Assembly (NCBI GenBank): GCA_021734905.1
Contig: JAIPIB010000001.1
Location: 71,476-135,475, forward strand
DNA from: Minisyncoccota bacterium
GTDB taxonomy: Bacteria > Patescibacteriota > Minisyncoccia > Phycocordibacterales > UBA918
Length of the DNA stretch: 64,000 nt
Direction: 5' to 3'
Below the pieces are notes generated by a model, which was not told the DNA's origin, ran no database searches, and saw nothing but the letters and a program-made list of their open reading frames with translations. Position 1 is the first letter of the stretch, and the number at the start of each line of letters is the position of its first letter. This document shows positions 21,859-52,173 of the stretch, one piece after another. The translations under genes and the position numbers were made by a program.

Positions 21859-22716
21859 TTGTTTGGTAGGTGGGCAGGTTGTAGGTATTTGTGTATACTT
21901 TTTGGTATGGAAATGAAAGAATATAAAGGAATATTGCATTGTCATTCAACCTATTCGTATGATGCAAAGCTCTCACTCCTTGAGCTTAAGAAGTTATTTC
22001 AGGAGAAAGGTTTGAGTTTTGTGTGCATGACCGAACATGTAGATGAACTGACACCAGAGCGATCCGAAGAATTCGTCCGTGAGTGTGAAGTACTCTCGGA
22101 TGACTCATTCCGATTCATCCCAGGCTTTGAAGTGCCTTATAAGCACGCGCATATTCTTATGATAGGTATGCGCGAATTCTTAGGGAAGTACGCGTCGACT
22201 CTTGAGGTTTTAAAAACATGGACAAGCAAGGCAGAGTTTGTTGTTCTTGCACACCCTGTCCGAAATCACTTCGAAGTTGAGGATGGACTCCTAGAACAAA
22301 TTGATGCCCTTGAAGTATGGAACCAGCAATATGAGGGAAAGCGTGTGCCACGAACTCGCTCCGTCACACTTCTTGATGGGTTGCGAAAACAAAAACCATT
22401 GCTTCTTGCAGTAGGTGGTGTTGATTTTCATCGAACAGAACATTTTGGATCACCAGTAACAACTCTCAGTGTTGAGAAACTTACAGAGGCGACAATATTA
22501 GAAAAATTGCAGACAGGAGCGTACAGTGTTTCTTCAGATAAAGCATTTTTCTACGGAACGTTACCAAATAGTGTTGGGCTACTTAGAGCTCACAGACTTG
22601 AAAGTTTAGTATCAGTCACCGTAATCGTAATGGGGAAGTTTGTTAATAAAATACTTGCGTCGCTCGGGCTCTCTCTTCCAAAATCCTTCAGAAACATCAT
22701 CCGAAAGCGACTTTGA
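21859..22716 (+). CDS. PHP-domain metal-dependent phosphoesterase (CpsB/YwqE-like fold)
   Basis: ILHCHSTYSYDAKLSLLELKKLFQEKGLSFVCMTEHVD matches the PHP HxH...D...TEH pattern. The likely start is the Met at about 21904. Confidence 0.65.
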   Translation: MFGRWAGCRYLCILFGMEMKEYKGILHCHSTYSYDAKLSLLELKKLFQEKGLSFVCMTEHVDELTPERSEEFVRECEVLSDDSFRFIPGFEVPYKHAHILMIGMREFLGKYASTLEVLKTWTSKAEFVVLAHPVRNHFEVEDGLLEQIDALEVWNQQYEGKRVPRTRSVTLLDGLRKQKPLLLAVGGVDFHRTEHFGSPVTTLSVEKLTEATILEKLQTGAYSVSSDKAFFYGTLPNSVGLLRAHRLESLVSVTVIVMGKFVNKILASLGLSLPKSFRNIIRKRL

Positions 22717-22835: not shown

Positions 22836-22927
22836 TTAGCCTCGACGCGCAAGCGCGTCGAGGCTAATCTATTTAAGCTCGATATTATTTCCCCATCATA
22901 AAATAGTACGATCGATCGTACTATTTT
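22836..22927. terminator. Two perfect palindromes between convergent genes: ttagcctcgacgcgc-aa-gcgcgtcgaggctaa (22836-22867) and aaaatagtacgatc|gatcgtactatttt (22900-22927)
   Basis: 15-bp and 14-bp perfect inverted repeats flanked by A/T runs, suited to bidirectional termination. The second overlaps the stop codon of the minus-strand gene. Confidence 0.55.
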
Positions 22928-23907
22928 GGAGTGAGATCGCTTATCGATGTGCTTTGCATTTTGTACTTAGTTTGGAGCATTTTAAAGTGCGTGAGGATGT
23001 CTTCGAGGTTTTTGAAATTTTCTTCTTGGTCGATGCCAAAATTATGTGGGTGCCACCAGAGATGGAAGACCTGGTCGTTTTTTGCGGCATGTGACATGGC
23101 ATTTTTAATACGTCGCATACGGAGTGGCTCAAAGAGTCGAAGAGTACTATTCCATGGACGGAAAAAACGACTGGAAGGAATGTTTACTGGAAAATTCTTA
23201 ACTCTTTCAGGAAGTGAGTAGGTGTGATATCCGCTGATGTTAACGTAGTGATCGAGAAGACGAAGTGCGCGTATGAAGAGTGATTGTGAGGAATCCTTTC
23301 TAGGTTTGTAGAGAAAATGATTTTCATTGCCTCTGTATGTTTTTAGACCTTTTTCAGAACAAACTCGCAAAGCTTCTTTGTCAGTTTGATTTCTAGGGAA
23401 GACTATTGAGGTGGCATGTATGTCATACGTTTGAGCAATACGATTGAAGGCGTCGATGTCTGCCTCAAATATTTCACCGCTATTTTTATGGCCATCGATG
23501 CAGTAGTAGTGCGAGAAGGTATGATTCCCAATTTCTTGATGTGGTGTGCTTAGAATTTTCTTAACAAGACTTTCTCCAAAGTGGTACTTGTCGGCAGACT
23601 CATCAGTACCGATTGAGGATGTCTCGATGTATTGATAAGATGAAACATTCATATCTTCATACGTTGGTCGTAGTTCCTTTGGCGGAAGAAGAGAAAGGAG
23701 TTCTTCTCTGTCGCGCGCCATAAGCATTCCGACAGTTGCCCATGTTGCATGAATCCCGTATCTTTCAAAAATTTCGAGTATTCGAGGAATAGCAGTTTGC
23801 TCCCCCAAGATTCTTTCTCCGTACTCAGCCAAAGTGACTTTATCAAACATGCCCCAAAAGAGCTCAAAATCAAGTGAAACAACGAAATAGCTTTTGTGCC
23901 TTTCCAT
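22921..23907 (-). CDS. Polysaccharide deacetylase family (CE4-like) protein
   Basis: VVSLDFELFWG resembles the aspartate-containing motif 1 and GNHTFSHYY the H-S/T-x-x-H motif 2. Confidence 0.55.
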   Translation of the reverse strand: MERHKSYFVVSLDFELFWGMFDKVTLAEYGERILGEQTAIPRILEIFERYGIHATWATVGMLMARDREELLSLLPPKELRPTYEDMNVSSYQYIETSSIGTDESADKYHFGESLVKKILSTPHQEIGNHTFSHYYCIDGHKNSGEIFEADIDAFNRIAQTYDIHATSIVFPRNQTDKEALRVCSEKGLKTYRGNENHFLYKPRKDSSQSLFIRALRLLDHYVNISGYHTYSLPERVKNFPVNIPSSRFFRPWNSTLRLFEPLRMRRIKNAMSHAAKNDQVFHLWWHPHNFGIDQEENFKNLEDILTHFKMLQTKYKMQSTSISDLTPK

Positions 23908-24026: not shown

Positions 24027-25145
24027 GTGCATACTATGGCTATGAAGATTCTTATTGCAACAGGCTTATATCCACCAGAAATAGGCGGACCTGCCACCTA
24101 TGCTGTCTTTCTTGAAAAGTTTCTAGGACTACATGGTGTCTCATGTAGTGTTCTTCCATATAGCGAGGTTCGTAAGTACCCAAAGGCTATTCGACATCTT
24201 GCGTATATCATTAAACTTTTGTTACGCTCGCAAGGAGTTACTCTGTTCTATGCGCTTGATACAGTAAGCGTCGGTCTTCCGGTACGTGTTGTGAGTTTTA
24301 TTACACGCAAACCTTACTTCCTTCGTGTTCCGGGTGATTATGCCTGGGAGCAAGGACAACAAAGATTTGGCATTACTGAAACATTGGACGAATTTTTACT
24401 TTCTAAAAAGAAAACATGGAAAGTCACGATGCTTTCGCGGATTCAGTATTATGTAGCATTGCATGCGACAAAAGTTGTTGTCCCGAGTGAATATATGAAA
24501 TCAGTCGTTTCACGATGGGGAATTGAACTGAAAAAAATCACAAGGGTTTATAGTGCACTCACCCTTGATCTTTCTACTGAAACAAAGACAGAGCTTCGCT
24601 CGCGTTTTGAATATGATGGATTTGTCGTTTCTACTGCTGGTCGCCTTGTACCATGGAAGGGGATGGAGGTGCTTATTGATGTTGTAGCGCAACTCTATAA
24701 ACAAGGTAAAAAAATACGTCTTGAAATAATGGGAGACGGTGAATTACGATCAGAACTCGAGAGACATGTTGAGAAAATTGGTGCCCAGGAGTATGTGCAT
24801 TTTTATGGCGTTGTCGATAAACGAGAGCTTAAAGATAGAATCAAAGCATCCGATGTCTTTGTGCTCAACACATCTTATGAGGGCCTTTCCCATCAGTTAC
24901 TTGAAGTTATGGATTGCGGTACACCAGTCATAACAACACCAGTAGGCGGAAATGCTGAGCTCATTGAAGATGGTAAAGAAGGACTTCTTGTATCATTTAA
25001 TGATAAGGAAGGAATAATTGAGGCTCTTACACGAGTAGCTACTGATGAAAGACTTCAGGAACACATTGTTGGGAATGCTCACGAAAAAGTTTCACTTTTT
25101 CGTGAGGAAGTTATTATTCCAGAGGTCGTCAAACTATTTACGTAA
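24027..25145 (+). CDS. Glycosyltransferase family 4
   Basis: MKILIATGLYPPEIGGPATYA N-terminus. C-terminal GLSHQLLEVMDCGTPVITTPVGG. Confidence 0.85.
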   Translation: MHTMAMKILIATGLYPPEIGGPATYAVFLEKFLGLHGVSCSVLPYSEVRKYPKAIRHLAYIIKLLLRSQGVTLFYALDTVSVGLPVRVVSFITRKPYFLRVPGDYAWEQGQQRFGITETLDEFLLSKKKTWKVTMLSRIQYYVALHATKVVVPSEYMKSVVSRWGIELKKITRVYSALTLDLSTETKTELRSRFEYDGFVVSTAGRLVPWKGMEVLIDVVAQLYKQGKKIRLEIMGDGELRSELERHVEKIGAQEYVHFYGVVDKRELKDRIKASDVFVLNTSYEGLSHQLLEVMDCGTPVITTPVGGNAELIEDGKEGLLVSFNDKEGIIEALTRVATDERLQEHIVGNAHEKVSLFREEVIIPEVVKLFT

Positions 25146-25148
25146 CAT

Positions 25149-26279
25149 ATGGAAATTCTTACCGTTGGGATCGCCCGGAAAATCTTAGATGTAAAAAGTC
25201 GTGAATATCGACGTATGAGGACGTATGCCAAACACTTTGAGGCATTTCACGCAATTGTTTTAACACGGAAAGAACATGGATATGGTGACGTACTTCACGA
25301 TGAGACATTGAATATTTATCCGACGAATTCATCTTCACGGATGATGATGCTTTGGGATGCGTACAGAATCGGAAAAGAAATTGCACGACAAAAGAGAAAA
25401 TCTACACTCATCATTTCGGCACAAGATCCATTGGAAATCGGATGGCTTTGTTTTTTACTCTCAAGTATCAAAAATACATGTCTTCATGTTCAGATACATG
25501 GTGATTATTTTAGCTCAAATGCATGGGCAGGAAAGTCACTATTGAGATACGCTCGTCGCTTTTTTGCGCTCGTACTCTTGAAACGCGCTGTAGCAATTCG
25601 CGTTGTGTCAGAGAGAATTAAAAAATCTTTATGTAGTAGAGGTATCAGTTCTGGTCGTATCGCGGTATTGCCCATTCGACCGGAGTTAGAATCTTTTTGT
25701 CGGGTGGTATATACAGTTAAAAAAAATCCACCTTATACATTTTTGTATATCGGTAGGCTCGTATCAGAAAAAAATATCACGCGTATTGTAAAAGCTTTTT
25801 CTAATATACATACCAAATATCCAGATACACGGCTTACTATTGTGGGCGACGGGGAGGAAAAAAAGAAAATTGAATCTTTAATTCAAAAGCTCAAGATTGG
25901 TAGTTCTGTTGATATAAGAGCTTGGACAGAAAACGTGCCAAATGAGATGGCGGATGCCGACGTTCTCCTTTTGGCTTCAAAACATGAAGCATATGCGCTA
26001 ACACTTGTTGAGGCAATGGCGACCGGACTTCCACTGGTTACGACTGATGTTGGGTGTGTTGGTGAATTGGTGAAAGACGATGAACACGGCATTGTCGTTA
26101 CAGAAGAAGGTGTCGATGCGTATTCAAAAGCGATGGAGCGCATGGTAAGTGATTATGAATTTAGAAAAGCATGTAGTGAAAATGGAAAGAAAACTATGTG
26201 TTGTAAAGCGACGAACAGCAATGACGAATATATAAGAGAGTGGGTAAGTTCGGTATCAATGGCACTTCAGCACGTATAA
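25149..26279 (+). CDS. Glycosyltransferase family 4
   Basis: KHEAYALTLVEAMATGLPLVTTDVGCVGELV motif. Confidence 0.8.
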   Translation: MEILTVGIARKILDVKSREYRRMRTYAKHFEAFHAIVLTRKEHGYGDVLHDETLNIYPTNSSSRMMMLWDAYRIGKEIARQKRKSTLIISAQDPLEIGWLCFLLSSIKNTCLHVQIHGDYFSSNAWAGKSLLRYARRFFALVLLKRAVAIRVVSERIKKSLCSRGISSGRIAVLPIRPELESFCRVVYTVKKNPPYTFLYIGRLVSEKNITRIVKAFSNIHTKYPDTRLTIVGDGEEKKKIESLIQKLKIGSSVDIRAWTENVPNEMADADVLLLASKHEAYALTLVEAMATGLPLVTTDVGCVGELVKDDEHGIVVTEEGVDAYSKAMERMVSDYEFRKACSENGKKTMCCKATNSNDEYIREWVSSVSMALQHV

Positions 26280-26287
26280 TATAAAGT

Positions 26288-27685
26288 ATGGCAAAGAAGA
26301 TCTATGATTGGCTTGATCCATCAAAACAAGCCGCTGATTATTTAAACACAGTACTTGAACGGGATGATGTATTAAAAGGTGATCAGACACTTGATGATCT
26401 TCTTGAAAATGATGATGACGACAATCAGTCTTATTCCTCAGAAATTGATGTGGAAGTAGATACAAAGACCACACCAAGAAATGCACGTAATGAGCCAAAA
26501 ATCCTTTCAGATATACCAGAACGAGAACAGGCTCGTCTTCTTTTCCTGACTAAGGACACTACAATAATGCAGGAGGGAAGTCTTTCAAATCGACGGATTG
26601 CTGATCTTCGTAGTTTTTTCCTTGAAGTCCATGTCGTCGTACTTACCTTGCGAGAAGAGGAGGATGTTGCTCCCGTACGATTATTTGATAACGTGTGGTT
26701 ATATGCAACGAATTCACGTTCACCGTGGCGCATGGCATATGATGCTTATGTTGTTGTTAAAACCCAACTTATATTCGGAGGTGGATTTCGTGCCGATGTG
26801 ATTATTGCAGAGGATACGTTTGAGACAGGTCTCGTTGGATGTTTCTTTTCAAAAAAACACAAAAGACCTCTTCAGGTGCATATCAGTGAAGACTTTTTTG
26901 TTACGTCTTTTATTGAAGCACAGGAGTATCCACTTTTGTATGAATGGGCAACTAGATATGTTCTTAAGCACGCAACAAGTGTGCGCACAAAGACAGAATT
27001 TCAGCGACAAGCAGCTATTTTGGAATACCCAGATCTCACATCAGTAACTGAGATCCTCCCTAATTATTATAATTTGGAAGGATGGAAAAATTTTGTGCCA
27101 ACCGTAAATTTACGTGAGCGGTATCCTCAATTTAAATTTACATTGCTTAATATTTCATCAATGCGAAAGAGTTCTCGCGCACTTGAAGCGCTTATAGGTG
27201 CGGCAAAGATTTTGCACAGATATCCCGTCGTCGGGCTCATTATGGTAGGGAATGGTCCTATGCGCGCAGTCCTTGAGAGGTATGCAATTTCTCTTGGTGT
27301 TCAGAAACAGGTGGAGTTTGAACCACTGCCGACTGAAGTACTCTCATTCATGAGGTCTACTAATGTACTACTTCATCTTTCTGAGGACGGGGAAGACGAT
27401 GATTTTATTTTAGAGGCTGCTGTCGCAAGACTCCCTATGGTGGCAAATAAAGACGGGATCGCAGGGCAACTTTTTGTTGATGAAGAATCTGCATGTCTGT
27501 GCGCAGCTACTGATATCGAATGCATTGCCAATAGCATCAATAGATATTTAAATGAAAATCAAGATCGTGCACTGTTTACAAACAGAGCATATGACATAGT
27601 TTTCGAACGTGTTGAGCAAGACTATGGAGAATATATCAAGCAGTATGCAGAGAGCATACAACGTTGTGTCGTTAAAGAAGGTTAG
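26288..27685 (+). CDS. GT4-like glycosyltransferase with an acidic roughly 90-aa N-terminal extension
   Basis: GT-B halves are recognisable (DVIIAEDTFETGLVG... and EDGEDDDFILEAAVARLPMVAN). The N-terminus is Asp/Glu-rich. Confidence 0.65.
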   Translation: MAKKIYDWLDPSKQAADYLNTVLERDDVLKGDQTLDDLLENDDDDNQSYSSEIDVEVDTKTTPRNARNEPKILSDIPEREQARLLFLTKDTTIMQEGSLSNRRIADLRSFFLEVHVVVLTLREEEDVAPVRLFDNVWLYATNSRSPWRMAYDAYVVVKTQLIFGGGFRADVIIAEDTFETGLVGCFFSKKHKRPLQVHISEDFFVTSFIEAQEYPLLYEWATRYVLKHATSVRTKTEFQRQAAILEYPDLTSVTEILPNYYNLEGWKNFVPTVNLRERYPQFKFTLLNISSMRKSSRALEALIGAAKILHRYPVVGLIMVGNGPMRAVLERYAISLGVQKQVEFEPLPTEVLSFMRSTNVLLHLSEDGEDDDFILEAAVARLPMVANKDGIAGQLFVDEESACLCAATDIECIANSINRYLNENQDRALFTNRAYDIVFERVEQDYGEYIKQYAESIQRCVVKEG

Positions 27686-27699
27686 ATCTACTAAGCAAT

Positions 27700-28764
27700 G
27701 TGGAGTACAATGCCACGTATTGCTTCCCTATGAACCTACTTATTTGTACACAGACTATAGACAAAAATGACTCAATTCTGGGATTTTTTCATGGGTGGGT
27801 TCTTGAATTTGCAAAGCATTTTGATGAAGTTCATGTCATATGTCTTGGAAAAGGGGAATACAATTTTCCGCCGCATGTTCATGTGTATTCTCTTGGGAAG
27901 GAGTGTGGTGAAAATAGATTGAAATACTTTTTTCGTTTCTACTCCTACTTTTCCAAAATATTTCTTGGAGGGCATGTAGATTATGTTTTCTTTCATATGG
28001 GAGCGATTTACAATATTCTCGCAGCACCATTCTTCGTAATTCGAAAAATATTTAAGACTAAATTTTATTGGTGGAAAGCACACGGACACATTAACTGGGG
28101 AGGTAAGCTCGCTCTTCTTTTTGTTGACATTGTTTATACAGCTTCTCAGGAAAGTTTCCCTATTGATTCTAGAAAAAAGAAAGTGATTGGTCATGCGATC
28201 AACATAAATATGTTTAATGTGGTGGAACGCACTATATCTGATCCTATCGTTTTGTTTGTGAGTAGGATTACACCAATCAAACAAGCTGAATCTTTTATTG
28301 ATACGGTGCAAATACTTAAAACTCGAGGATATAAGTTTCAAGCACGCATTGTCGGGGTAGTGGGTGATCCTAAGTATATGCAATTGATGGAGGAAAAAAT
28401 TCTCAGAGCAAAACTTTCAGATACAATTCAATTTATTGGCCCAATCAAGCATGATCTACTTCTTGAAGAGTACCGCCATGCTTGCGTACTGGTCCATCCG
28501 TCCGAAACGGGTAGTATTGATAAGGTTGTCCTTGAGGCAATGGCTTCTGGAGTCCCTGTGGTGGCCCTGCAGAAAGCATATGCCGATTTACTTAAAGAGT
28601 TTGACCTTACTGTTAATTCACAAGATCCAGTGCTGTACGCAAACTTGGTAGAGAAAGTATTTTTAAATAGAGAATATTTTCAACAAATGTCGGAAAAATT
28701 GAGAAAAAAGATTATAAGCACTAATTCCCTTGAAACCCTATCTGGAAGGATTTTTGGTTTTTAA
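27700..28764 (+). CDS. GT4-like glycosyltransferase
   Basis: C-terminal SETGSIDKVVLEAMASGVPVVAL. Probable start at the internal Met at about 27727. Confidence 0.65.
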   Translation: MEYNATYCFPMNLLICTQTIDKNDSILGFFHGWVLEFAKHFDEVHVICLGKGEYNFPPHVHVYSLGKECGENRLKYFFRFYSYFSKIFLGGHVDYVFFHMGAIYNILAAPFFVIRKIFKTKFYWWKAHGHINWGGKLALLFVDIVYTASQESFPIDSRKKKVIGHAININMFNVVERTISDPIVLFVSRITPIKQAESFIDTVQILKTRGYKFQARIVGVVGDPKYMQLMEEKILRAKLSDTIQFIGPIKHDLLLEEYRHACVLVHPSETGSIDKVVLEAMASGVPVVALQKAYADLLKEFDLTVNSQDPVLYANLVEKVFLNREYFQQMSEKLRKKIISTNSLETLSGRIFGF

Positions 28765-28833
28765 ATACTGACGAAGGAAAGTATTTAAAAAATTAGAAAT
28801 GACAGAATAGAAATGGTGTTCTAATATAGATTT

Positions 28834-29682
28834 ATGGTCAATTTTATAGGTATTGGAGCGCAACGAACGGGGACGTCGTGGGTATATGCATGTCTTTATG
28901 AACACCCAGATATTTGTATCCCTGTTAAAGAAATTCACTTTTTTAGTCGACCACGGTATGAAAATGGAAAAGAATGGTATGAAGACCATTTTAGGAAGTG
29001 TAAAAAAGAAAGTAGGTGCGGAGAATTTTCAACTTCGTATTTGTACTCAGATGTTGCTGCTGAGCGTATTTCTAAAGATTACCCAGAAGCAAGAATAATT
29101 GTCATTGTACGAAATCCTATTACGCGTGCGCTTTCACAGTATGGAAATGCAATAAAGGGAGGCGAGATACCCGAGACTATGTCTTTTGAGGAATATTACA
29201 AATCAGAGGCAAGTGTTCTTGAACAAGGACGTTATGTAGAACAACTTGAACGGTACCTTGAGAGATTTGACCGTTCACAAATACTTGTCCTCGTGTATGA
29301 AGATAATAAGAAAGATCCACGTGCATTTATTCACAGTATATATGAATTTCTTGGTGTGCGTTCTGACTTCGTGCCAAGTATGCTTCATGACACAATCAAT
29401 GCTACTCGTATACCAAAAAATGTTGTAATAGAAAAAATGATGCATCGTTTTTCAGAATATCTGAGACGGTACGGATTTGATCGACTCGTGCATCGTATTC
29501 GGCAATTAGGAATTCCTGAATTAATACGAGCCATGAATACAAAACCAAAAAAAGATGAGAGGCCAGTATTTAATCAAGAGTATCTCATGAATTATTTTAA
29601 GAACGACGTAACAAAACTCTCTTCGTTACTTGGGCGTGACCTTAATTCTGAGTGGGGAATAAGTGACACACATACACAATAA
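28834..29682 (+). CDS. Sulfotransferase (PAPS-dependent, Sulfotransfer_1/3-like)
   Basis: 5'-PSB loop IGAQRTGTSW and 3'-PB motif IVIVRNPITRALSQY. Confidence 0.75.
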   Translation: MVNFIGIGAQRTGTSWVYACLYEHPDICIPVKEIHFFSRPRYENGKEWYEDHFRKCKKESRCGEFSTSYLYSDVAAERISKDYPEARIIVIVRNPITRALSQYGNAIKGGEIPETMSFEEYYKSEASVLEQGRYVEQLERYLERFDRSQILVLVYEDNKKDPRAFIHSIYEFLGVRSDFVPSMLHDTINATRIPKNVVIEKMMHRFSEYLRRYGFDRLVHRIRQLGIPELIRAMNTKPKKDERPVFNQEYLMNYFKNDVTKLSSLLGRDLNSEWGISDTHTQ

Positions 29683-30491
29683 TGAAAAAATATCTCAGAA
29701 ACAACTTTATATCATTTGTTAGTCATGTGGGACTTTCGTATATATATCGTACCCTCAAAAAAAGGGAAGGTTCTCTTGTGCGGGTGCTTGTCTTTCATGA
29801 TGTGCAGGATGCAAGCTGGTTCGAGAATATGATGACGTCTCTGAATAAGCGATACAATCTGCTTACGCCAGATTCTTTTCTTAAAAAGCAGTATGACTCA
29901 AATCGGATAAATGTACTTATTACATTTGATGATGGGTACTTATCATGGGTAGATGTTTGCCTTCCTATCCTTAAAGAAAAGGGGATCAAAGCACTCTTCT
30001 TTATTAATTCAGGACTCATTGACGTATTTGAACATCAAGATATTCAGGAACAATATATTCGGGGAAACCTCCTTCTTTCGCCACGGAAAACACTTTCATG
30101 GGATGGTGTCAAAAAACTTCATGAAGCTGGACACATGATAGGTGGCCATACGACAACCCATCCTCGACTTTCTGAGTTACATGAAGATAGACAGAGAGAG
30201 ACTGTCGTCCAGGATAAAAAACGGATTGAGGAAATACTTAATACGTCGATACGCACTTTCGCATATCCGTTTGGTCAGAGAAATGACTATACTCCAGAAA
30301 CAGTAGGCATTGTAAAGGAGTCCGGATATACACACTCGTTTACAACTGAAGGAGTATTCGTTAATGCGTATAATCAATTTGAATTTTCAAGACTTTGCGT
30401 TGAGGACGGCCTTTCAATAGGACAATTGAAGCAATGGATTGAAGGTGGGTACGATCTCTATCACAAAATTAAAACACTATGTGTGCGATAA
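29682..30491 (+). CDS. Polysaccharide deacetylase (CE4 / NodB-homology domain)
   Basis: VLITFDDGY motif 1 and GHTTTHPRL motif 2. Confidence 0.75.
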   Translation: MKKYLRNNFISFVSHVGLSYIYRTLKKREGSLVRVLVFHDVQDASWFENMMTSLNKRYNLLTPDSFLKKQYDSNRINVLITFDDGYLSWVDVCLPILKEKGIKALFFINSGLIDVFEHQDIQEQYIRGNLLLSPRKTLSWDGVKKLHEAGHMIGGHTTTHPRLSELHEDRQRETVVQDKKRIEEILNTSIRTFAYPFGQRNDYTPETVGIVKESGYTHSFTTEGVFVNAYNQFEFSRLCVEDGLSIGQLKQWIEGGYDLYHKIKTLCVR

Positions 30492-32335
30492 ATGGCGTTA
30501 CTAAAAATGATGAGGCTCGTGTAGTCCTCATGAATAAAAAGACAAACCATCGAGGTCCTGATGGTTCTTCAGTGTTTGTAGATAGTAAGATAACACTTGG
30601 ACATAACCGTCTCGCTATCATTGATGTGAGTGATGCGTCAGCACAGCCAATGAAAAGTAATGACGGACGCTATGTCATTGTCTATAACGGAGAACTTTAT
30701 AATTTTAAAGAATTGCGTGAAGAGCTTGTGTCACGATATGAATTCAAAACGCAGGGTGATACAGAAGTCCTTCTTGCTGCGTACATAGTATGGGGAGAAG
30801 AAATGTTCACGAAACTTCGAGGTATTTTCGCTCTTGCTATTTGGGATACCAAAACTGAAGAACTTCTTCTTGCTCGAGATCATATGGGAGTGAAACCGCT
30901 CTACTATCATTTTGAAAATGGAATATTGAGTTTTTCCTCAGAAATTAATGGACTCATAGACACACAAACGAAAGAGCTTGATCAAGATGCTCTCGCACTC
31001 TATATGGAGTTTGGATACGTTCCGAGTAGTGCGTCACTCACTAAAAATATTAAGAAACTATCGCCAGGTCATTGTATTCTCTACAAAAATGAAAGGTTCG
31101 ATGAACACGCTTTCTATGACCCAATTTGTAATATTGGTATTCCGGCGCTTTCCGCGAATCCAAATATGGACCCTCAACAAAGCCTAGTATGTATTATTGA
31201 TACTGCGGTTCAAAGACAACTTGTGTCTGATCGCCCTGTCGGAATGTTTCTATCAGGAGGCATTGATTCAAGTGTTGTACTTCATCATGCATCCAAGTAC
31301 ACACCACATATGCGTACATTCTCTGTCGATTTTGAGATGGTCACGGGAGCAGAGTCGGAAGGAGGTAAATTTAACACCGATGCAGCACTTGCGGCAAAGA
31401 CAGCTCAAATATACGGAGCGCAACACAAGACATTTACGCTCACCATTGAGGATGTTCGTAACAATTTAGTACTAGCAATTGAATCGCTTGATGAGCCTGT
31501 TGCAAATCCAACAGCAATCTCACAGTACCTACTTTCAAAATGGGTACGTGATGAGGGTGTTGTCGTTGCACTCGGTGGGGATGGAGGAGATGAGCTCTTT
31601 GGAGGTTACACACGCCATCGTATGTCAATGGCTGCGTACTATTTTCAAAAAATACCCGCATTATTTCGAGCACCTATTTCTCATCTCAATTCTCGTGTTG
31701 GAAAATTGAACACCGAACTTGGTTTCCCAATGCATATGATGCTTATGGCAAATAAAGTTGTTCAAAATAAAGATATTTTTTTACAAGATTTCTCACCTTA
31801 TATAAAAGCAGAAGCATTTTTTACGTCTGCGTACGCGCGTGTACCACAAGACACCTACCATCCTGTTGATACATTCATGCGTATCGATCGTGAGACATGG
31901 CTTCCTGACGAATCACTGGCACGTTCTGATCGTTCAAGTATGGCACATGGCCTGGAACTTCGTGTACCGCTCCTTGATTTAGATGTCGTAACGTATGCCG
32001 ATACAATCTCTGTCTATAAAAAAACAGACCCATTCACAGGAAAGAAAATTCTTCGTAATGCATACAGTACACATTTACCCGAATACCTTTATAATCAACC
32101 GAAACGTGGTTGGATATCTCCAGGCGCAAAATGGTTTCGCGACCCTGTTATCATGTCGCTCGCGAAAGAAATACTTTCGCCCACCTATTACGACGGACTC
32201 AATCTTTTTAATTGGCCAGTCGTGGAGACGATGCTTTTAGACCATATAGAAAAAAGGGGGTATTATTTGTATCCACTTTGGAACATACTCGTTCTTCAGA
32301 TATGGGCGAGAAAGAACCGCATTAGTATGCAGTAG
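30479..32335 (+). CDS. asnB: Asparagine synthetase B-type glutamine amidotransferase (WbpS-like amidotransferase is plausible in this glycan context)
   Basis: N-terminal Cys2 (MCAING), GHNRLAIIDVS, PP-loop LSGGIDSS. Confidence 0.85.
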   Translation: MCAINGVTKNDEARVVLMNKKTNHRGPDGSSVFVDSKITLGHNRLAIIDVSDASAQPMKSNDGRYVIVYNGELYNFKELREELVSRYEFKTQGDTEVLLAAYIVWGEEMFTKLRGIFALAIWDTKTEELLLARDHMGVKPLYYHFENGILSFSSEINGLIDTQTKELDQDALALYMEFGYVPSSASLTKNIKKLSPGHCILYKNERFDEHAFYDPICNIGIPALSANPNMDPQQSLVCIIDTAVQRQLVSDRPVGMFLSGGIDSSVVLHHASKYTPHMRTFSVDFEMVTGAESEGGKFNTDAALAAKTAQIYGAQHKTFTLTIEDVRNNLVLAIESLDEPVANPTAISQYLLSKWVRDEGVVVALGGDGGDELFGGYTRHRMSMAAYYFQKIPALFRAPISHLNSRVGKLNTELGFPMHMMLMANKVVQNKDIFLQDFSPYIKAEAFFTSAYARVPQDTYHPVDTFMRIDRETWLPDESLARSDRSSMAHGLELRVPLLDLDVVTYADTISVYKKTDPFTGKKILRNAYSTHLPEYLYNQPKRGWISPGAKWFRDPVIMSLAKEILSPTYYDGLNLFNWPVVETMLLDHIEKRGYYLYPLWNILVLQIWARKNRISMQ

Positions 32336-32342
32336 TGATTGT

Positions 32343-33512
32343 ATGACAGAAAAAACACGCAAAATAAAATTAGTGTACATAGCGAATGTTCGTATGCCTA
32401 ATGAGCGTGCACATGGAATTCAGATTGCAAATACGTGCGAAGGGGTTGGTAAAAGGGGAATTGACTTAACCCTCGTTACATCAAAATTTTATGACAAGCG
32501 CCTACTTCTATCCGAACATTACGATATTACACAGACCTTTAAGCACACCAAAATATTTGTTTTTGATATACCGTGGATTCCATTTCGGTATTTTCTTCGA
32601 AATTTTTCCTTTTTCTTTTTTGTAAATGTTTATTTACTTACTGCATATATAAAGTCATTTGTGGCAAGGGAGAAATTAGTGGTGTATGTGCGAGGAGAAG
32701 TAATACTTTCACTAATTCCATTTACTTGGTTCATTCCTATTTTTTTTGAGACGCATCAAATTAGAAACTATGAAAGCTTGTACCGAATTGCACTTAGTAG
32801 AGTAAGGGGAATAATTGTGGTTACTCAAGGCCTGAAGACAAAGTTTGTTAAAGAATATAAAATTTCACAAAATAAGATTCTTGTGGCCAGGGATTCGGTA
32901 AATCTAGAAAAATTTAAATCTTCCGCACGGAACAGAGAACTGTGGATTCAACATGGAATTCCGAAGGATAAAAAAATTGTCCTCTATTCCGGAAGCTTGG
33001 CAATAGAAAAGGGTGTTCATACACTAGCGGGTACAGCAATGTTTGTGCCAAATGATGTGCAAATCGTATTTCTAGGAGGAACAGAATCTCAAGTTTCCGC
33101 ATTTAAGGATAAATATGGAAACGTAAAAAATATTTCCATACTCGGTAGGGTAAACTATATTGAAGTTCCAAAATATATTGCCGCGGCTGATGTGCTCGTT
33201 CTCCCTGACCTAGCTGAATTTACTTATAGTAACTTGTACACATCTCCGATGAAGCTTTTTGAGTACATGGCAAGCGGACGTCCGATTTTGGCTTCTCGAG
33301 TGCCGTCACTTCTTGAGGTTCTTAATGAAAATTCGGCAGTATTTTTTGAATCGGGAAATTCAGAATCTCTTGCAAAAGGAATTAACTCAATAATAAATGA
33401 CGACATACAATCGAATGAGTTGGGTATGCGGGCACAGGAAATTGTCTCTGAATTTACGTGGGAAAAGAGAGCCGAAGCAATCATAAGTCATATTCAGAAT
33501 CATTTAGCATAG
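32343..33512 (+). CDS. Glycosyltransferase family 4
   Basis: C-terminal SPMKLFEYMASGRPILASRV motif. Confidence 0.75.
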   Translation: MTEKTRKIKLVYIANVRMPNERAHGIQIANTCEGVGKRGIDLTLVTSKFYDKRLLLSEHYDITQTFKHTKIFVFDIPWIPFRYFLRNFSFFFFVNVYLLTAYIKSFVAREKLVVYVRGEVILSLIPFTWFIPIFFETHQIRNYESLYRIALSRVRGIIVVTQGLKTKFVKEYKISQNKILVARDSVNLEKFKSSARNRELWIQHGIPKDKKIVLYSGSLAIEKGVHTLAGTAMFVPNDVQIVFLGGTESQVSAFKDKYGNVKNISILGRVNYIEVPKYIAAADVLVLPDLAEFTYSNLYTSPMKLFEYMASGRPILASRVPSLLEVLNENSAVFFESGNSESLAKGINSIINDDIQSNELGMRAQEIVSEFTWEKRAEAIISHIQNHLA

Positions 33513-33570
33513 AGAGGTAATTTTATTCGAATCACTATATACTAGTACAAATCAAAATTATGCAACGAGT

Positions 33571-34191
33571 ATGATGAATAAAGATAAGGAAGCAACATAC
33601 GCTGAAAAAATATACACCGTTAATGGTGTTACTCAGGAGAATATTTGTACTCATGGTGAAAAAATCCTCCATATAGGTCCGGGCAAGAGGGCTCTCTTAG
33701 GGGCAAAAACAATAGATATTCTTAATCTTTCTGGTGTTGATATTGTTCATGATTTAGATATCGTGCCGTGGCCATTTAAAGACAATGAATTTGATTTAAT
33801 ATTTGCGCACAGTGTTTTTGAGCACTTGGATAAACAAATCGCCGTAATGGAGGAGATGTGGCGGATTCTTAAGCCGAAAGGTCGGATTGTCATTACGGTA
33901 CCGCATTTCAGGTGTACAGATGCTTTCACCGATTCAACGCACAGACATTTTTTTACGACACAATCAATGGACTACTACATAAAGACAAAAGCGCTCTCGA
34001 ATTACCAGTACACGACCAAAAACTTTTTGGAAAAAGGTTTTTGGTTTGGATGGCCACAGCAGTCAAAAAATCCATTCACGAGACTCTTTAAGTGGTTTAT
34101 TAAAAGGTACCCACGTTTCTATGATTCGCACCTGTCGCTCCTTTTTCCAGTCAAGATAATTATTTGGGAACTTGAAGCAGTAAAAGAATAA
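33571..34191 (+). CDS. Class I SAM-dependent methyltransferase
   Basis: ILHIGPGKR motif I and FDLIFAHSVFEHL...MWRILKPKGRIVITVP (Methyltransf_11/23-like). Confidence 0.7.
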   Translation: MMNKDKEATYAEKIYTVNGVTQENICTHGEKILHIGPGKRALLGAKTIDILNLSGVDIVHDLDIVPWPFKDNEFDLIFAHSVFEHLDKQIAVMEEMWRILKPKGRIVITVPHFRCTDAFTDSTHRHFFTTQSMDYYIKTKALSNYQYTTKNFLEKGFWFGWPQQSKNPFTRLFKWFIKRYPRFYDSHLSLLFPVKIIIWELEAVKE

Positions 34192-34192
34192 T

Positions 34193-35284
34193 ATGCATGT
34201 AGGAATCGTATTACATCCATTTGGCAACTCATCGAAGGGCTTGGAACAGTATGTCTTCGAGAGTACCAAGGCGATACTTGAAAAATCTGTAGGCGATATT
34301 ACAGTTACTGTTTTTGTAAAGGGTGATTCTGATACGAGTTCGTTACCTGCAGGAACTCCTGTAATAAAATTACCAGACTCAATATTTTGGAATTTGTTTT
34401 TGATACCGTGGTATAGAAAATGTGACACGTTTATTTTTTTTACTGAGTCCGCACCATTTTTTCTTTGGAAGAAAAGCATTATTGTTTTTCTCGATGCTGC
34501 GTATTACCATTTTGTTGAATCAACCTTTTTTTCAAAAATAAAACGAATTTTTCTTGCTTGGTGGAGGAAACATATGATGCTTGCAGCTCAGCATGTTGTG
34601 ACGATTTCAGAGGCTTCGAAGAAAGATCTTTTAGATATCTTTAAAATCCAAGATCAACACGTCTCTGTGATTTATCCAGGATTTAAGTCATTGAAGTATT
34701 CGAAGAATACAATTACGCTGGTAAATGAAAAAACGTACTTTATGTATGTTGGTCCGATGAAAGAGCGTAAGAATGTTGTGGCTATCGTCGAGGCGTATAT
34801 TCGTTTCCATGAAATGACTGATTTTAATCATCAGCTTATTCTTGTTGGAAGAAAATCGAGTGGAACATATGCCGATAAAGTGAATAAACTTGTCGAAAAA
34901 AGTATATACAGAGATTCAATTATCTTTAAAACATCTGTGAATGATGAAGAGTTACAAGAAATGTACACTCAAGCTGCTGCACTTGTGTACCCGAGTTTGT
35001 TAGAAGGTTTTGGTCTACCAATACTTGAGGCACTAAGCTGTGGGTGCATGGTTATTACCTCAAACACAACGAGCACGAAGGAAGTCGTAGGGAAAGCAGG
35101 ATTTTTGGTTAATCCACACGAAGTCTATGAAATTGCTGATGCTATGGCGCATGTGGCTAATTATGATTATGATGAAGAAGAGTTTAAGGTAGCTGCAAGA
35201 GAACAATGTGATAAATTTAGTTGGGAGAAGTCGGGAGTTGAATGGTGTAAAATACTTCGGGAAAAATGCCCGACGACTAAATAA
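34193..35284 (+). CDS. Glycosyltransferase family 4
   Basis: YPSLLEGFGLPILEALSCGCMVITSNTTSTKEVVG motif. Confidence 0.8.
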   Translation: MHVGIVLHPFGNSSKGLEQYVFESTKAILEKSVGDITVTVFVKGDSDTSSLPAGTPVIKLPDSIFWNLFLIPWYRKCDTFIFFTESAPFFLWKKSIIVFLDAAYYHFVESTFFSKIKRIFLAWWRKHMMLAAQHVVTISEASKKDLLDIFKIQDQHVSVIYPGFKSLKYSKNTITLVNEKTYFMYVGPMKERKNVVAIVEAYIRFHEMTDFNHQLILVGRKSSGTYADKVNKLVEKSIYRDSIIFKTSVNDEELQEMYTQAAALVYPSLLEGFGLPILEALSCGCMVITSNTTSTKEVVGKAGFLVNPHEVYEIADAMAHVANYDYDEEEFKVAAREQCDKFSWEKSGVEWCKILREKCPTTK

Positions 35285-35304
35285 TCCTCAAACATCACTA
35301 TAGT

Positions 35305-36339
35305 ATGAAAAAGAAGAAAGTATTTGTTACAGGAATCACTGGTCAAGACGGATCGTATTTAACGCCGATCTTACTTGATGCTGGATATGAGGTTCATGCA
35401 CTCGTACGTCTTCGTGGTGGAGATCGACCAGTCATTATTGATGACCTTGCGCGAGAAAAAAAAGTCATTTTTCATACAGGTTCACTTACGGACCTTTCTT
35501 CTTTAAGTACGATTTTGGAGGGGGTGAGACCAGATGAAGTTTATAATCTTGCGGCACAATCCCACGTAGTGTCTTCATTCAAAAGTCCCGTTGAAACATG
35601 GGACGTAAATTATTATGGTCTTGGACGCTTGGTCAATGAAGCACTTCGAGTAAATCCTGATGTGCGTATTTACCAAGCGTCGACAAGTGAAATGTTTGGT
35701 AATTCTCCAGCACCACAAAGTGAGAATACCCCGTTTGATCCTCAGAGTCCGTATGCAATGTCAAAAGCGATGGCACACACTGATTTTATTATGCACAAGA
35801 GAGCTTCAATGGGCGCGTTTGCCGTATCAGGCATTCTCTTTAATCATGAGTCACCAAGACGGGGAAGGGATTTTGTCACACGAAAAATTACGTTTTCTCT
35901 AGCTAAGATCGCATTTGGTTTACAAGAGTGTCTTGAGCTTGGGAACCTTAATGCAGTACGTGATTGGGGACATGCTGAAGACTATGTCCGCGCGATGTTT
36001 ATGATGCTCCAGCAAGACACTCCAGAAGATTATGTCATAGCGAGTGGCGAGTCACATTCAGTGCGAGATTTTGTTGAGATTGCCGCACAGTATTTTGGCA
36101 TCAATATTGCATGGGAAGGAGAAGGAAAAGCTGAAATAGGTCGTAACAAAATGACGGGAAAGATAGTTGTAAAAGTGAACCCAGAGTTTTATCGACCACG
36201 GGAAGTCAACTTCATTCAGGGGGATGCGACAAAGGCACACACAAAACTCGGATGGAAACCAAGGTATAGCTTTAGTGATATTGTCACTGAAATGGTGAAG
36301 TCTGATCAGGAATTAGTCCGTAGAGAATATAAATTATAA
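35305..36339 (+). CDS. gmd: GDP-mannose 4,6-dehydratase (paralog 1)
   Basis: KKVFVTGITGQDGSYL, YAMSKAMAH (YxxxK), ILFNHESPRRGRDFVTRKIT. Confidence 0.85.
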   Translation: MKKKKVFVTGITGQDGSYLTPILLDAGYEVHALVRLRGGDRPVIIDDLAREKKVIFHTGSLTDLSSLSTILEGVRPDEVYNLAAQSHVVSSFKSPVETWDVNYYGLGRLVNEALRVNPDVRIYQASTSEMFGNSPAPQSENTPFDPQSPYAMSKAMAHTDFIMHKRASMGAFAVSGILFNHESPRRGRDFVTRKITFSLAKIAFGLQECLELGNLNAVRDWGHAEDYVRAMFMMLQQDTPEDYVIASGESHSVRDFVEIAAQYFGINIAWEGEGKAEIGRNKMTGKIVVKVNPEFYRPREVNFIQGDATKAHTKLGWKPRYSFSDIVTEMVKSDQELVRREYKL

Positions 36340-36343
36340 TCGT

Positions 36344-37498
36344 ATGATTAAAAGTACCTATCTAAGAACCGCTATCCTTTTTTTGTTATCATTATTCTTT
36401 TCACTTTTCAGAGGAAAAGCTACTCGTGTGGCACCGAATATGACGCGTGTCGGAGTAATATATCTTACAGGTAATGTTGGGGATATGATCTTTTGTACAC
36501 CCATATTTCGAGCACTTAAGGAAGCAAAACCAGAAAGTGAAATGTATGTTATTGGTAGGAAGCGAAATGCAGATACACTTCGTTATAGTCCTCATGTGAA
36601 GGAATATATTGAATGCCCAAACTCGCCATACGCACTTTGGAAGATTCTGAGAGGACTCAAATTACAGTATGCCTTTATACTCAATCCTTCAACGCTTGAA
36701 CTTGCTCTTTTTTATCTTGCGAACGTCCAAGCGATTGCGACATTTTCTGCGCCAATTGCGTCTGCAGAAACACGAACGTATAGAATCTTAAAGAAACTTT
36801 GTATACAAATTCCATTTGCAGCTGGTGAGAATTTTGCAACTGAGAATCTTAAGTTAATTGCTCCCCTCGGTATTGTGTCTACTGATACGAGGAAGCATCT
36901 CTACTATTCAGAAGAAGCTCGTATTGGTATCCAGAATTTTCTTAAAGAACAAAATGTTGTTCTGGGGGTCAACATGGTCATTGCCCTCGCTCCTGGGGCA
37001 GGTACAAAAATAAAACAATGGCCGGCAGATAGATTTGCAAAGCTTGCAGACCACTTGTATGAAAAATATCATACCCCTATTTTTATCGTAGGAGGCCCTG
37101 GCGATAAAAAAGAATTTGAAGCGATGTCACAGGCACTAAATACTGAGACAAAGGTAGTATCATGTCTGCATCACACAATTGATGAACTAAAGGCATTTAT
37201 GGCACAAATAGATATTGTTATTGCAAATGATAGCGCACCAATCTATGTTGCTGAAGCTTTCGATAAAGCTACCGTAACGATTGTTGGGCCAACAGATGAA
37301 AATGAACATCCACCAAAAGGTGTGTTCGACAGAGTGGTAAAAAGCAAGGACAGAGGAGTTCCTGCTCTTGCTGCCAGTATTGCCAATGAGCAATCAAACA
37401 ACAGTGAGGACGCACGAAGTCAAATAGAAAAAGTGACTGTTCTAGAAGTGGTTGATACTGCTGATGAACTCATTGCTACCCTTGAAAAAGGCAGATAA
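36344..37498 (+). CDS. Glycosyltransferase family 9 (ADP-heptose:acceptor heptosyltransferase-like)
   Basis: N-terminal VIYLTGNVGDMIFCTPIFRALKEAKPESEMYVIG and C-terminal IFIVGGPGDKKEFEAM...IANDSAPIYVAEAF, typical of GT9. Confidence 0.65.
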   Translation: MIKSTYLRTAILFLLSLFFSLFRGKATRVAPNMTRVGVIYLTGNVGDMIFCTPIFRALKEAKPESEMYVIGRKRNADTLRYSPHVKEYIECPNSPYALWKILRGLKLQYAFILNPSTLELALFYLANVQAIATFSAPIASAETRTYRILKKLCIQIPFAAGENFATENLKLIAPLGIVSTDTRKHLYYSEEARIGIQNFLKEQNVVLGVNMVIALAPGAGTKIKQWPADRFAKLADHLYEKYHTPIFIVGGPGDKKEFEAMSQALNTETKVVSCLHHTIDELKAFMAQIDIVIANDSAPIYVAEAFDKATVTIVGPTDENEHPPKGVFDRVVKSKDRGVPALAASIANEQSNNSEDARSQIEKVTVLEVVDTADELIATLEKGR

Positions 37499-37542
37499 AC
37501 AGTGAATTTTAAATTTAGTAGTCATATGATATATTTACATCG

Positions 37543-38580: not shown

Positions 38581-38608
38581 ATTATTGATAATGCACCTTT
38601 AAGTATCT

Positions 38609-39989: not shown

Positions 39990-39990
39990 T

Positions 39991-41265: not shown

Positions 41266-41317
41266 GGTGAGATTATAACGTGTGACTCATGTACGTACAA
41301 GCACCTGCTGAAGGGGT

Positions 41318-42115: not shown

Positions 42116-42168
42116 CTATAACTTGAAGATAGCAACCTTTTATGTGTAATTTTAGTACTATTGGTTAG

Positions 42169-43167: not shown

Positions 43168-43200
43168 TTTTTTTACAGAAAAGTTTTTCCATCAAGTTAA

Positions 43201-44706: not shown

Positions 44707-44739
44707 GTCCATATGTTTGAAATAAACTAAGAGATTAGT

Positions 44740-52164: not shown

Positions 52165-52173
52165 TTTGTTACG

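Follow-up and report, generated by a model that had tools for sequence, protein, structure and literature searches.

A glycan locus in a bacterium of the Candidate Phyla Radiation encodes a PAPS-dependent sulfotransferase and a fused PAPS synthase and predicts a sulfated cell-surface glycan

In rhizobia, dedicated sulfate activation by NodPQ is paired with carbohydrate sulfotransferases, NodH for the Nod factor and LpsS for lipopolysaccharide. In Synechocystis, the xss cluster for the sulfated polysaccharide synechan is of the Wzx/Wzy type and contains two sulfotransferases, as genetic and compositional analyses have shown (PMC8205485), and sulfated capsules have been described in Vibrio sp. 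KMM 8419 and Cobetia marina (PMC11641403, PMC11766843). The association of sulfotransferase genes with genes for the synthesis of 3′-phosphoadenosine 5′-phosphosulfate (PAPS) within one polysaccharide cluster has been published as a hallmark of sulfated polysaccharides. Here, we analyzed a stretch of 64 kb of contig JAIPIB010000001.1 (64,000 nucleotides, hereafter the window) from a Minisyncoccota bacterium, a member of the Candidate Phyla Radiation (CPR). A glycan locus spans about 16.9 kb to 57 kb of this window; it contains an open reading frame (ORF) for a sulfotransferase at 28834–29682 and, at its right border, an ORF for a bifunctional PAPS synthase at 53009–54685. Judged by gene content, the locus combines a PAPS-synthesis gene, a sulfotransferase and Wzx/Wzy-type export genes, as expected of a sulfated-polysaccharide locus. 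We consider it probable (around 0.72) that a soluble cytoplasmic PAPS-dependent sulfotransferase, together with the PAPS synthase of the locus, gives rise to a sulfated cell-surface glycan. An initial annotation of the window had called sulfated polysaccharides uncommon in bacteria; they are indeed rarer than the unsulfated ones, but are documented, for instance in the three genera named above.

The genes on which this reading depends are the following.

27700–28764, + strand: GT4 glycosyltransferase directly 5′ of the sulfotransferase (Pfam Glycos_transf_1); the database gene call starts at about 27730 and has 344 amino acids
28834–29682, + strand: sulfotransferase of 282 amino acids with an ATG start, assigned to the PAPS-dependent carbohydrate type and predicted to be cytoplasmic (Pfam, PDB matches, AlphaFold2 and Foldseek, alignment of homologues)
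29682–30491, + strand: CE4 (NodB-type) polysaccharide N-deacetylase, predicted to be cytoplasmic (Pfam PF01522)
30479–32335, + strand: AsnB-type glutamine amidotransferase (Pfam GATase_6/7 and Asn_synthase; TIGR01536, 426 bits)
53009–54685, + strand: bifunctional PAPS synthase (Sat-CysC) with the domains PUA_2, ATP-sulfurylase and APS_kinase (Pfam, NCBIfam NF004040, motifs, homologues)

The product of 28834–29682 matched Pfam PF00685 (Sulfotransfer_1; E 8.4e-21, 75 bits, gathering cutoff 22) and PF13469 (Sulfotransfer_3; E 5e-19, 69.9 bits, cutoff 27), which sets it apart from P-loop proteins that are not sulfotransferases. The two PAPS-binding motifs from which the initial annotation had deduced PAPS dependence were both confirmed. 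The 5′-phosphosulfate-binding motif (5′-PSB) is GAQRTGTSW at residues 8–16, aligned to GVKKGGTRA of the heparan-sulfate 3-O-sulfotransferase 3-OST-3 and to GAAKCGTSS of PDB entry 3RNL, and the 3′-phosphate-binding motif (3′-PB) is RNPITRALS at residues 93–101, aligned to VRDPVTRAIS of 3-OST-3. The catalytic stretch reads K-E33-I-H35-FFSR, with Glu-x-His intact. In an alignment of 25 homologues (mean column identity 70%), residues G8-A9-Q10, T14-S15-W16, K32-E33, H35-F36-F37-S38-R39, R93, R98 and S101 are invariant. Lys and Arg alternate at position 11 of the same alignment, and Arg11 of the window protein is therefore a normal variant.

The top PDB sequence match was 3RNL, which aligned over the full length (E 1.2e-26; profile E 6.9e-34). 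It was followed by the heparan-sulfate enzymes 3-OST-3, 3-OST-5 and 3-OST-1 and the N-deacetylase/N-sulfotransferase NDST1, with E values of 1e-16 to 1e-13 for the single sequence (human 3-OST-3A1, 1e-16; sulfotransferase domain of NDST1, 2e-13) and of 5e-23 to 3e-19 for the profile. Cytosolic sulfotransferases (SULTs) and the natural-product enzymes StaL and Teg12 gave far weaker matches. The AlphaFold2 model (pLDDT 87.9, pTM 0.84) has the sulfotransferase α/β fold, and every top Foldseek match in the PDB was a sulfotransferase: 3RNL, the 3-OSTs and NDST1 with TM-scores of 0.62–0.68 (E 1e-13 to 1e-8), and TPST, CurM-ST and the cytosolic SULTs with TM-scores of about 0.4 (E about 1e-4). On sequence and predicted fold, the protein is assigned to the PAPS-dependent carbohydrate-type sulfotransferases, in the PF00685 branch of the heparan-sulfate glucosamine sulfotransferases.

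In the profile alignment, K-E-I-H-F-F-S-R of the window protein faces A-E-P-H-F-F-D-R of 3-OST-3 and E-E-I-Q-F-F-N-G of NDST1, so that the catalytic Glu is common to all three while the His is O-sulfotransferase-like. The stretch GEFSTSY aligns with MEKTPSY of 3-OST-3 and FEKSANY of NDST1, and has Phe65 at the position of the Lys in E-K-[TS]; all 25 aligned sequences share GEFSTSYLY (G63–Y71), F65 included. A hydrophobicity scan found no transmembrane segment or signal sequence, the chain opening directly at strand 1, and the protein does not have the type II membrane topology of an enzyme of the Golgi lumen. Since it has neither the substrate-binding Lys nor this topology, it is not to be filed as an orthologue of 3-OST or NDST. 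The sequence and the model predict most probably an O-sulfate linkage and an acceptor pocket of its own kind. The wider family is large, with 3,433 representatives at 50% identity (E ≤ 1e-30), and by this sequence sampling it is no invention of the CPR. A protein identical to that of the window is deposited as MCF7815440.1 and MCF7856937.1 ("sulfotransferase domain-containing protein", Candidatus Pacebacteria/Paceibacterota).

The PAPS synthase gene starts 23.3 kb downstream of the sulfotransferase stop codon on the same strand, close to the 24 kb initially given for it. Its assignment was borne out by the NCBIfam equivalog NF004040 (779.1 bits, cutoff 669, residues 11–553). The motifs QTRNPMHRAH (182), GRDHAG (276), the P-loop GLSCSGKST (388), DGD (417) and LIAP (461) complete the set for ATP sulfurylase and adenosine 5′-phosphosulfate (APS) kinase, and both halves therefore look catalytically competent. 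Translation probably starts at the ATG at 53036 (549 amino acids) rather than at the TTG at 53009, because the deposited protein and its close homologues have about 549 residues. This deposited protein, MCF7815417.1, is 23 accession numbers away from the sulfotransferase MCF7815440.1, both on a contig of 204,587 bp; homologues in the clade are 70–84% identical.

Every non-overlapping ORF of at least 90 amino acids in the window was compared with Pfam, and the unannotated ones also with NCBIfam; the Pfam scan left aside five short ORFs (373–714, 2563–3060, 3187–3651, 4761–5132 and 58367–58666), which overlap or adjoin the 16S rRNA gene or have the orientation opposite to that of flanking genes. 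Genes for an APS/PAPS reductase, a sulfite reductase or a sulfate permease did not turn up in the 64-kb window, nor did cysK/cysE or cysQ. The earlier statement that the fused enzyme has no APS/PAPS reductase or sulfite reductase nearby was thus upheld.

Within the locus, the sulfotransferase gene lies in a run of genes on one strand (24027–39989), between the GT4 genes and the CE4 deacetylase gene. The ATG of the deacetylase overlaps the stop codon of the sulfotransferase (TAATG), and the deacetylase and AsnB-type genes overlap by 13 nucleotides. Because of these overlaps, the sulfotransferase, deacetylase and amidotransferase genes are translationally coupled. The hydrophobicity scan found no hydrophobic segment in any of the three proteins. 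The deacetylase has the metal-binding and catalytic motifs TFDDG, HTTTH and RTFAYPFG, and its best PDB and NCBIfam matches, all below cutoff, are PgaB, PdaA, IcaB and HfsH. The AsnB-type enzyme also resembles, below cutoff, the exopolysaccharide amidotransferase TIGR03108, and from its sequence probably amidates a sugar carboxylate.

This arrangement is conserved. Sulfotransferase homologues of 56–74% identity form more than 100 clusters at 90% identity; they are full length and, where named, come from Kaiserbacteria or Paceibacterota. The source names of the identical deposited proteins and of the sulfotransferase and PAPS synthase homologues taken together are Pacebacteria, Kaiserbacteria, Paceibacterota, Nomurabacteria and Magasanikbacteria, which supports that the window comes from the CPR. 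Scanning the GTDB species-representative genomes for the sulfotransferase yielded 29 loci, with which the window proteins were compared by local tblastn. The GT4 gene of 27700 is upstream of the sulfotransferase in 23 loci, and the CE4 deacetylase is directly downstream in 20, with a truncated copy in one more (L006); including the loci with a GT4-sulfotransferase fusion, the sulfotransferase and deacetylase genes adjoin in 20–21 of about 24 CPR loci. The AsnB-type gene comes next after the deacetylase in eight loci. The order GT4–sulfotransferase–deacetylase is kept in about 20 CPR species-representative genomes, in full accord with the initial placement of the sulfotransferase inside a glycan locus. 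When the ORFs of the window and of 35 loci were all searched with a hidden Markov model of the family, each locus proved to have a single copy, and second copies were ruled out.

Furthermore, the sulfotransferase is found fused to glycosyltransferases. In L023 (Nomurabacteria; 8824–10704, + strand) and L021 (about 3011–4999, + strand), GT4 and sulfotransferase form a single ORF (...KKMYLQIKGERDPDFVGIGAQRAGTSW...) with neither a stop codon nor masked bases at the junction. Three other proteins have the same architecture: P0241 (627 amino acids), from an independent assembly on a 77-kb contig; P0242, which goes with L021 and is cut short by masked bases (537 amino acids); and P0243 (666 amino acids), a divergent Tara/ENA protein with the same sulfotransferase motifs. 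L022 was not counted as a third fusion locus, its junction being masked by Ns. Fusions to GT2 were also found (P0348–P0353, 595–826 amino acids), as was a fusion to a methyltransferase (P0352). The glycosyltransferase fusions occur in CPR and in other metagenomic bacteria and, from their domain content, could be single-polypeptide enzymes that add a sugar and sulfate it. In Hydrogenothermaceae and Bacteroidetes, the genes of distant sulfotransferase homologues (30–33% identity) are surrounded by Wzc/Wzz, GT2, Wzy_C and Wzx genes.

The PAPS synthase is flanked by glycan genes, GT2 and GtrA upstream and Wzy_C downstream, and the right border reads PAPS synthase, Wzy_C/TPR protein, MurB, SecA, Obg. 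The order PAPS synthase–Wzy_C/TPR–MurB–SecA–...–Obg is identical in the window and in three other genomes, where the Wzy_C/TPR protein directly downstream of the PAPS synthase has about 735 amino acids and is 61–67% identical (L031, 11976–14204; L033, 12450–14651; L034, 11971–14169). The genes between the sulfotransferase block and the PAPS synthase differ: NeuB, HAD and FkbM genes in L031 and L033, Epimerase_2 and CTP_transf_3 genes in L034, and GDP-mannose dehydratases in the window. Because the border order is constant while the intervening genes differ, the locus has conserved ends and a variable middle, as in O-antigen or capsule loci, and both sulfation genes lie in the conserved parts. 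The flippases of L010, L031, L033 and L034 are 29–30% identical to the Wzx of the window. Toxin-antitoxin modules (RelB/YafQ, ParE, CopG-like) adjoin the PAPS synthase in L031 (9313–9861) and L033 (9373–9941, 11790–12333); in the window they do not.

The spacing of the two genes was similar in the three other genomes with this border, in whose contigs both were placed by accession on the same strand: about 29 kb in CAZQIF010000002.1, 23.6 kb in CAZBMV010000004.1 and 25.4 kb in JBKJIT010000001.1. Six contigs (matched by size: 204587, 40632, 66986, 83090, 72791 and 72963 bp) are common to the best 120 sulfotransferase and the best 120 PAPS synthase homologues. Altogether, the two genes share a contig in at least eight cases plus L010. 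In L010, they are found 4 kb apart, the whole from sulfotransferase to PAPS synthase lying within 7 kb, in the order GT4–sulfotransferase–deacetylase–acetyltransferase–two methyltransferases–Wzx–PAPS synthase–AT3/SGNH acyltransferase. These data support that the PAPS synthase belongs to the glycan locus and is not a chance neighbor. The initial proposal that sulfate activation serves glycan sulfation here is supported by this synteny, by the L010 cluster, by the glycosyltransferase-sulfotransferase fusions and by the carbohydrate type of the sulfotransferase.

The other genes of the locus are listed below.

19956–21164: ATP-grasp protein in the conserved upstream block (Pfam; block found in 10–11 related loci)
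21240–21812: PaaX_M/Cas2-like protein in the conserved upstream block (Pfam; in 2 related loci)
21859–22716: PHP phosphoesterase in the conserved upstream block (Pfam; 10–11 related loci)
22921–23907, − strand: further CE4 deacetylase (Pfam; 10–11 related loci)
24027–25145, 25149–26279 and 26288–27685, + strand: three GT4 glycosyltransferases (Pfam; in 16–17 related loci)
32343–45495, mixed strands: variable middle with GT4s, GT9, methyltransferases, DUF6165, an SIS+CBS isomerase and CTP_transf_3 (Pfam)
35305–41265: within it, three paralogues resembling GDP-mannose-4,6-dehydratase, interleaved with GT9, DUF6165 and, on the − strand, a C-methyltransferase (PF08484) (Pfam)
42169–45495: SIS+CBS (KpsF-like) isomerase, then a protein of 501 amino acids, then a CMP-sugar synthetase (CTP_transf_3)
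45513–46793, − strand: Wzx-type flippase (Polysacc_synt; Pfam) with 8 transmembrane-like segments
47321–49009 and 50632–51756: two polytopic membrane proteins, from transmembrane counts (no Pfam or NCBIfam match)
47321–52884, mixed strands: right-middle part, which also holds a cytidylyltransferase/MPI-C protein, a methyltransferase and, on the − strand, GtrA and GT2
54893–57112, + strand: membrane protein of 739 amino acids with Wzy_C and a C-terminal TPR domain (Pfam) and 9 transmembrane-like segments

The set resembling GDP-mannose dehydratases suggests the synthesis of an unusual deoxy or branched sugar in the variable part of the locus, and the GT2 protein resembles polyprenyl-phosphate sugar synthases. 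From its domains, the Wzy_C/TPR protein is a candidate polymerase or ligase for the glycan. The 501-residue protein (43201) had no match in Pfam or NCBIfam and may be an unrecognised enzyme of an ulosonic-acid pathway; an SIS/CBS gene with a protein of about 490 amino acids recurs in L034 (2294–4767, 9176–9928), at 22% identity. Neither Pfam nor NCBIfam matched the proteins at 43201, 47321, 50632, 18165 (−), 19268 (−) and 16427. The PaaX_M/Cas2-like protein has 190 amino acids and an N-terminal hydrophobic segment, and is found in L005 and L006 at 66–76% identity. Two adjoining ORFs at 18165–19846 (− strand; 368 and 192 amino acids) were likewise without a Pfam or NCBIfam match. The N-terminus of the smaller (MRILLISPLYPPDIAGPAAY...) is similar to the start of a GT4 glycosyltransferase, and the pair may for this reason be a split or degenerate glycosyltransferase.

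We propose the following scheme. On the cytoplasmic side of the membrane, the GT4 enzymes encoded next to the sulfotransferase would build up a lipid-linked repeat unit. The sulfotransferase would add a sulfate ester, most probably an O-sulfate, to a sugar of this unit, likely in concert with the GT4 encoded upstream; its target is probably the sugar which that GT4 adds. PAPS would be supplied by the Sat-CysC enzyme encoded at the right border, and the co-translated CE4 deacetylase and AsnB-type amidotransferase would modify the same repeat unit. Wzx would flip the finished unit, and on the outer side the Wzy_C/TPR protein would polymerise it or ligate it to a surface acceptor, which would yield the sulfated surface glycan. 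We infer in this scheme the acceptor sugar, the stage of sulfation, the O- rather than N-linkage, the export route, the attachment site and the non-reductive fate of PAPS. The product is called a surface polysaccharide because the Wzx and Wzy_C genes are present. However, Wzy_C is also a domain of O-oligosaccharyltransferases and, for this reason, the sulfated glycan, rather than being polymerised, might be transferred to a protein, for example a pilin or an S-layer protein.

The coupling of the sulfotransferase to a deacetylase raises another explanation, a split NDST-like pair in which the CE4 enzyme frees the amine of GlcNAc or GalNAc and the sulfotransferase N-sulfates it, yielding an N-sulfo-hexosamine and heparan-like chemistry. 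The overlap of stop and start codons and the adjacency of the two genes in most CPR loci would fit such a pair, as would the presence of the NDST1 sulfotransferase domain among the closest characterised structures and the best matches of the deacetylase, which are the GlcNAc N-deacetylases PgaB, IcaB, PdaA and HfsH. However, the invariant His35 (K-E-I-H-FF) is that of the 3-O-sulfotransferases and not the Gln of NDST1 (E-E-I-Q-FF), 3-OST-3 ranks above NDST1 in both sequence and fold scores, and at E ≤ 1e-3 the deacetylase has no specific similarity to the deacetylase domain of NDST. Moreover, the deacetylase of L006 is truncated (183 amino acids) beside an intact sulfotransferase, the adjacency in an operon leaves the order of the reactions unfixed, and the ATP-grasp enzyme could re-acylate a freed amine. 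N-sulfation was therefore downgraded, on account of the 3-OST-type His in the active site and of a deacetylase without specific NDST similarity, and we regard it as unlikely. That the pair is the prokaryotic counterpart of a split NDST, providing an N-sulfated hexosamine and a heparan-like polyanionic coat for host attachment throughout Paceibacteria and Kaiserbacteria, is more doubtful still.

The PAPS synthase might also be a housekeeping enzyme, for assimilatory sulfate reduction or another sulfation, that lies near the glycan locus by chance; the sulfotransferase would then use PAPS from a common pool. Many bacteria employ Sat-CysC enzymes for assimilation, the gene is conserved to the same extent as SecA across the three genomes that share the border (78–81% against 76–78% identity), its other neighbors MurB and SecA are housekeeping genes, and cysH or aprA is present in 4.95% of 399 metagenome-assembled genomes (MAGs) of CPR (PMC11608272). 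This explanation is nevertheless quite improbable, given a window free of reductase, sulfite reductase and cysteine synthase genes, a survey of groundwater CPR in which PAPS synthase is present and sulfur-reduction genes are absent (PMC12114108), the contigs shared with the sulfotransferase, and the gene of L010, which sits between a flippase and an O-acyltransferase in a compact glycan cluster. That the acceptor is not a glycan but, for example, a tyrosine residue of a protein, a lipid or a small metabolite, and that the glycosyltransferase neighborhood is incidental, appears very improbable. PF00685 and PF13469 do include enzymes for small molecules, lipids and peptides (SULTs, StaL and Teg12 were weak matches), the sulfotransferase of L012 lies outside any glycan cluster and P0352 is fused to a methyltransferase. 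However, fold and sequence are much nearer to the carbohydrate sulfotransferases than to TPST, cytosolic SULTs or natural-product enzymes (TM-scores of 0.62–0.68 against about 0.4, E values of 1e-10 against 1e-4), fusions to GT4 and GT2 are recurrent, and the family is found in polysaccharide loci of CPR, Hydrogenothermaceae and Bacteroidetes. That the sulfotransferase is an inactive relic, as the Arg in place of the 5′-PSB Lys (GAQRTGTSW) could suggest, is extremely improbable. The window protein and the homologues nearest to it have Arg11, and most of the branch, including 3-OST, NDST and 3RNL, has Lys. But the two residues alternate within a strongly conserved family in which the other catalytic residues are invariant and more than 100 clusters at 56–74% identity stay full length, and Arg occupies this position in active tyrosylprotein sulfotransferases and PF13469-type enzymes. 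The exchange was thus rejected as a sign of inactivity.

Several observations weigh against a sulfated surface glycan as the product of this locus. No initiating phosphoglycosyl transferase was recognised among the window ORFs, none of which matched PF00953 or PF02397; such an enzyme may be encoded elsewhere. The Lys that binds the substrate in 3-OST and NDST (E-K-T/S) is a Phe in the window enzyme, and the acceptor is for this reason not inferable from the animal enzymes. The search for reductive genes covers the 64-kb window, and about 140 kb more of the contig, as well as other contigs, lie beyond it. In L012, the sulfotransferase is in a housekeeping context outside a glycan cluster. The synteny of the right border is weakly independent evidence, because the three genomes are relatives with a generally conserved gene order (SecA 76–78% identical), and L010 is the one rearranged case.

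Some features lie outside these arguments. In L012 (7754–8671, 10897–11610), the sulfotransferase gene stands beside a gene of the inositol-monophosphatase family and a NUDIX hydrolase gene, near uppS; the inositol-monophosphatase-family protein scored 58 bits with the CysQ model (cutoff 229) and higher with the HisN and SuhB models, all below cutoff. Just upstream of the glycan locus of the window (10929–14358), a TrwB/VirD4-like coupling-protein ATPase (669 amino acids) is followed by an overlapping gene for a protein with a Lamin-tail domain, a PKD domain and a C-terminal transmembrane anchor, genes related to the surface or to DNA uptake. The window also contains a complete 16S rRNA gene (597–2057, + strand) and, 1.9 kb downstream of it on the opposite strand, tRNA-Ile(GAT) (3962–4036, −). 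No 23S rRNA gene adjoins the 16S gene, and the rRNA operon is thus unlinked.

CPR bacteria (Patescibacteria) are thought to live attached to other cells, which makes their surface chemistry central, and to our knowledge almost nothing is known of it. The locus predicts that many Paceibacteria and Kaiserbacteria have a surface glycan which carries sulfate and amide groups and has lost part of its N-acetyl groups. In full-text literature searches, no paper was found that connected sulfotransferases or sulfated glycans to the CPR, in line with the initial remark that such glycans are undescribed for this group. In the CPR surveys found there, sat appears only as a marker of the sulfur cycle, and the PAPS synthase of groundwater CPR was read as "sulfate assimilation" (PMC12114108). 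The sat, cysC and PAPSS genes of CPR MAGs, described as "partial sulfate assimilation" or "sulfur cycling potential", may be better read as a sulfation module, and for this reason should not count as evidence of sulfur cycling. In addition, a soluble sulfotransferase of about 280 amino acids and the natural GT4-sulfotransferase fusions are candidate tools for the enzymatic sulfation of polysaccharides.

At the level of the enzymes, the window sulfotransferase shares with HS3ST1, HS3ST3A1, HS3ST5 and the sulfotransferase domain of NDST1 the fold, the 5′-PSB and 3′-PB loops that bind PAPS and the catalytic Glu, and with the HS3STs also the His of the E-x-H-F-F motif. It differs from them by an identity of only about 19–23%, by about 100 C-terminal residues that remain unaligned, and by the Arg in place of their 5′-PSB Lys; the animal enzymes are type II membrane proteins of the Golgi lumen, whereas the window enzyme is predicted to be soluble and cytoplasmic, and heparan sulfate is unlikely to be its acceptor. 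The nearest solved structure, 3RNL from Alicyclobacillus acidocaldarius (TM-score 0.68), shares the K-E-x-H-F-F-S motif and aligns even in the family-specific C-terminal region, but it is 27% identical and an uncharacterised structural-genomics entry, hence no guide to the acceptor. The PAPS synthase has the domain order PUA–ATP sulfurylase–APS kinase and the motifs of both halves found in the Sat-CysC fusions of the Aquifex type (NF004040). In animal PAPS synthases the domains follow in the reverse order, and the C-terminal kinase-like domain of fungal ATP sulfurylases is regulatory; the P-loop and DGD motifs of the window protein indicate an active APS kinase domain.

At the level of the locus, the clusters of Synechocystis (xss), Vibrio and Cobetia resemble that of the window in that their sulfotransferase genes are interspersed with glycosyltransferase genes and accompanied by export genes of the Wzx/Wzy type or of other types. 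Their sulfated product has been proven chemically, and that of the window is predicted. They belong, however, to Gram-negative bacteria that have complete sulfur assimilation, with cysDNC as separate genes, whereas the host of the window locus is a CPR bacterium with a reduced genome, its locus lacks components of the OPX (outer-membrane polysaccharide export) and PCP (polysaccharide co-polymerase) types, and a single Sat-CysC fusion is apparently its sole sulfur-activation gene. The rhizobial systems follow the same logic of dedicated sulfate activation paired with a carbohydrate sulfotransferase, but differ in the CysDN/CysC-type architecture of NodPQ and in their acceptors. A sulfation locus in CPR is apparently unreported, although the mechanism is already known from other bacteria. 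Since this logic has precedents in the cyanobacterial, Vibrio, Cobetia and rhizobial systems, the advance is one of distribution and interpretation and not of mechanism. Compared with the known sulfated-polysaccharide clusters, the window locus is distinguished by its conservation throughout the lineage and by a fused PAPS synthase that apparently operates apart from a reductive pathway.

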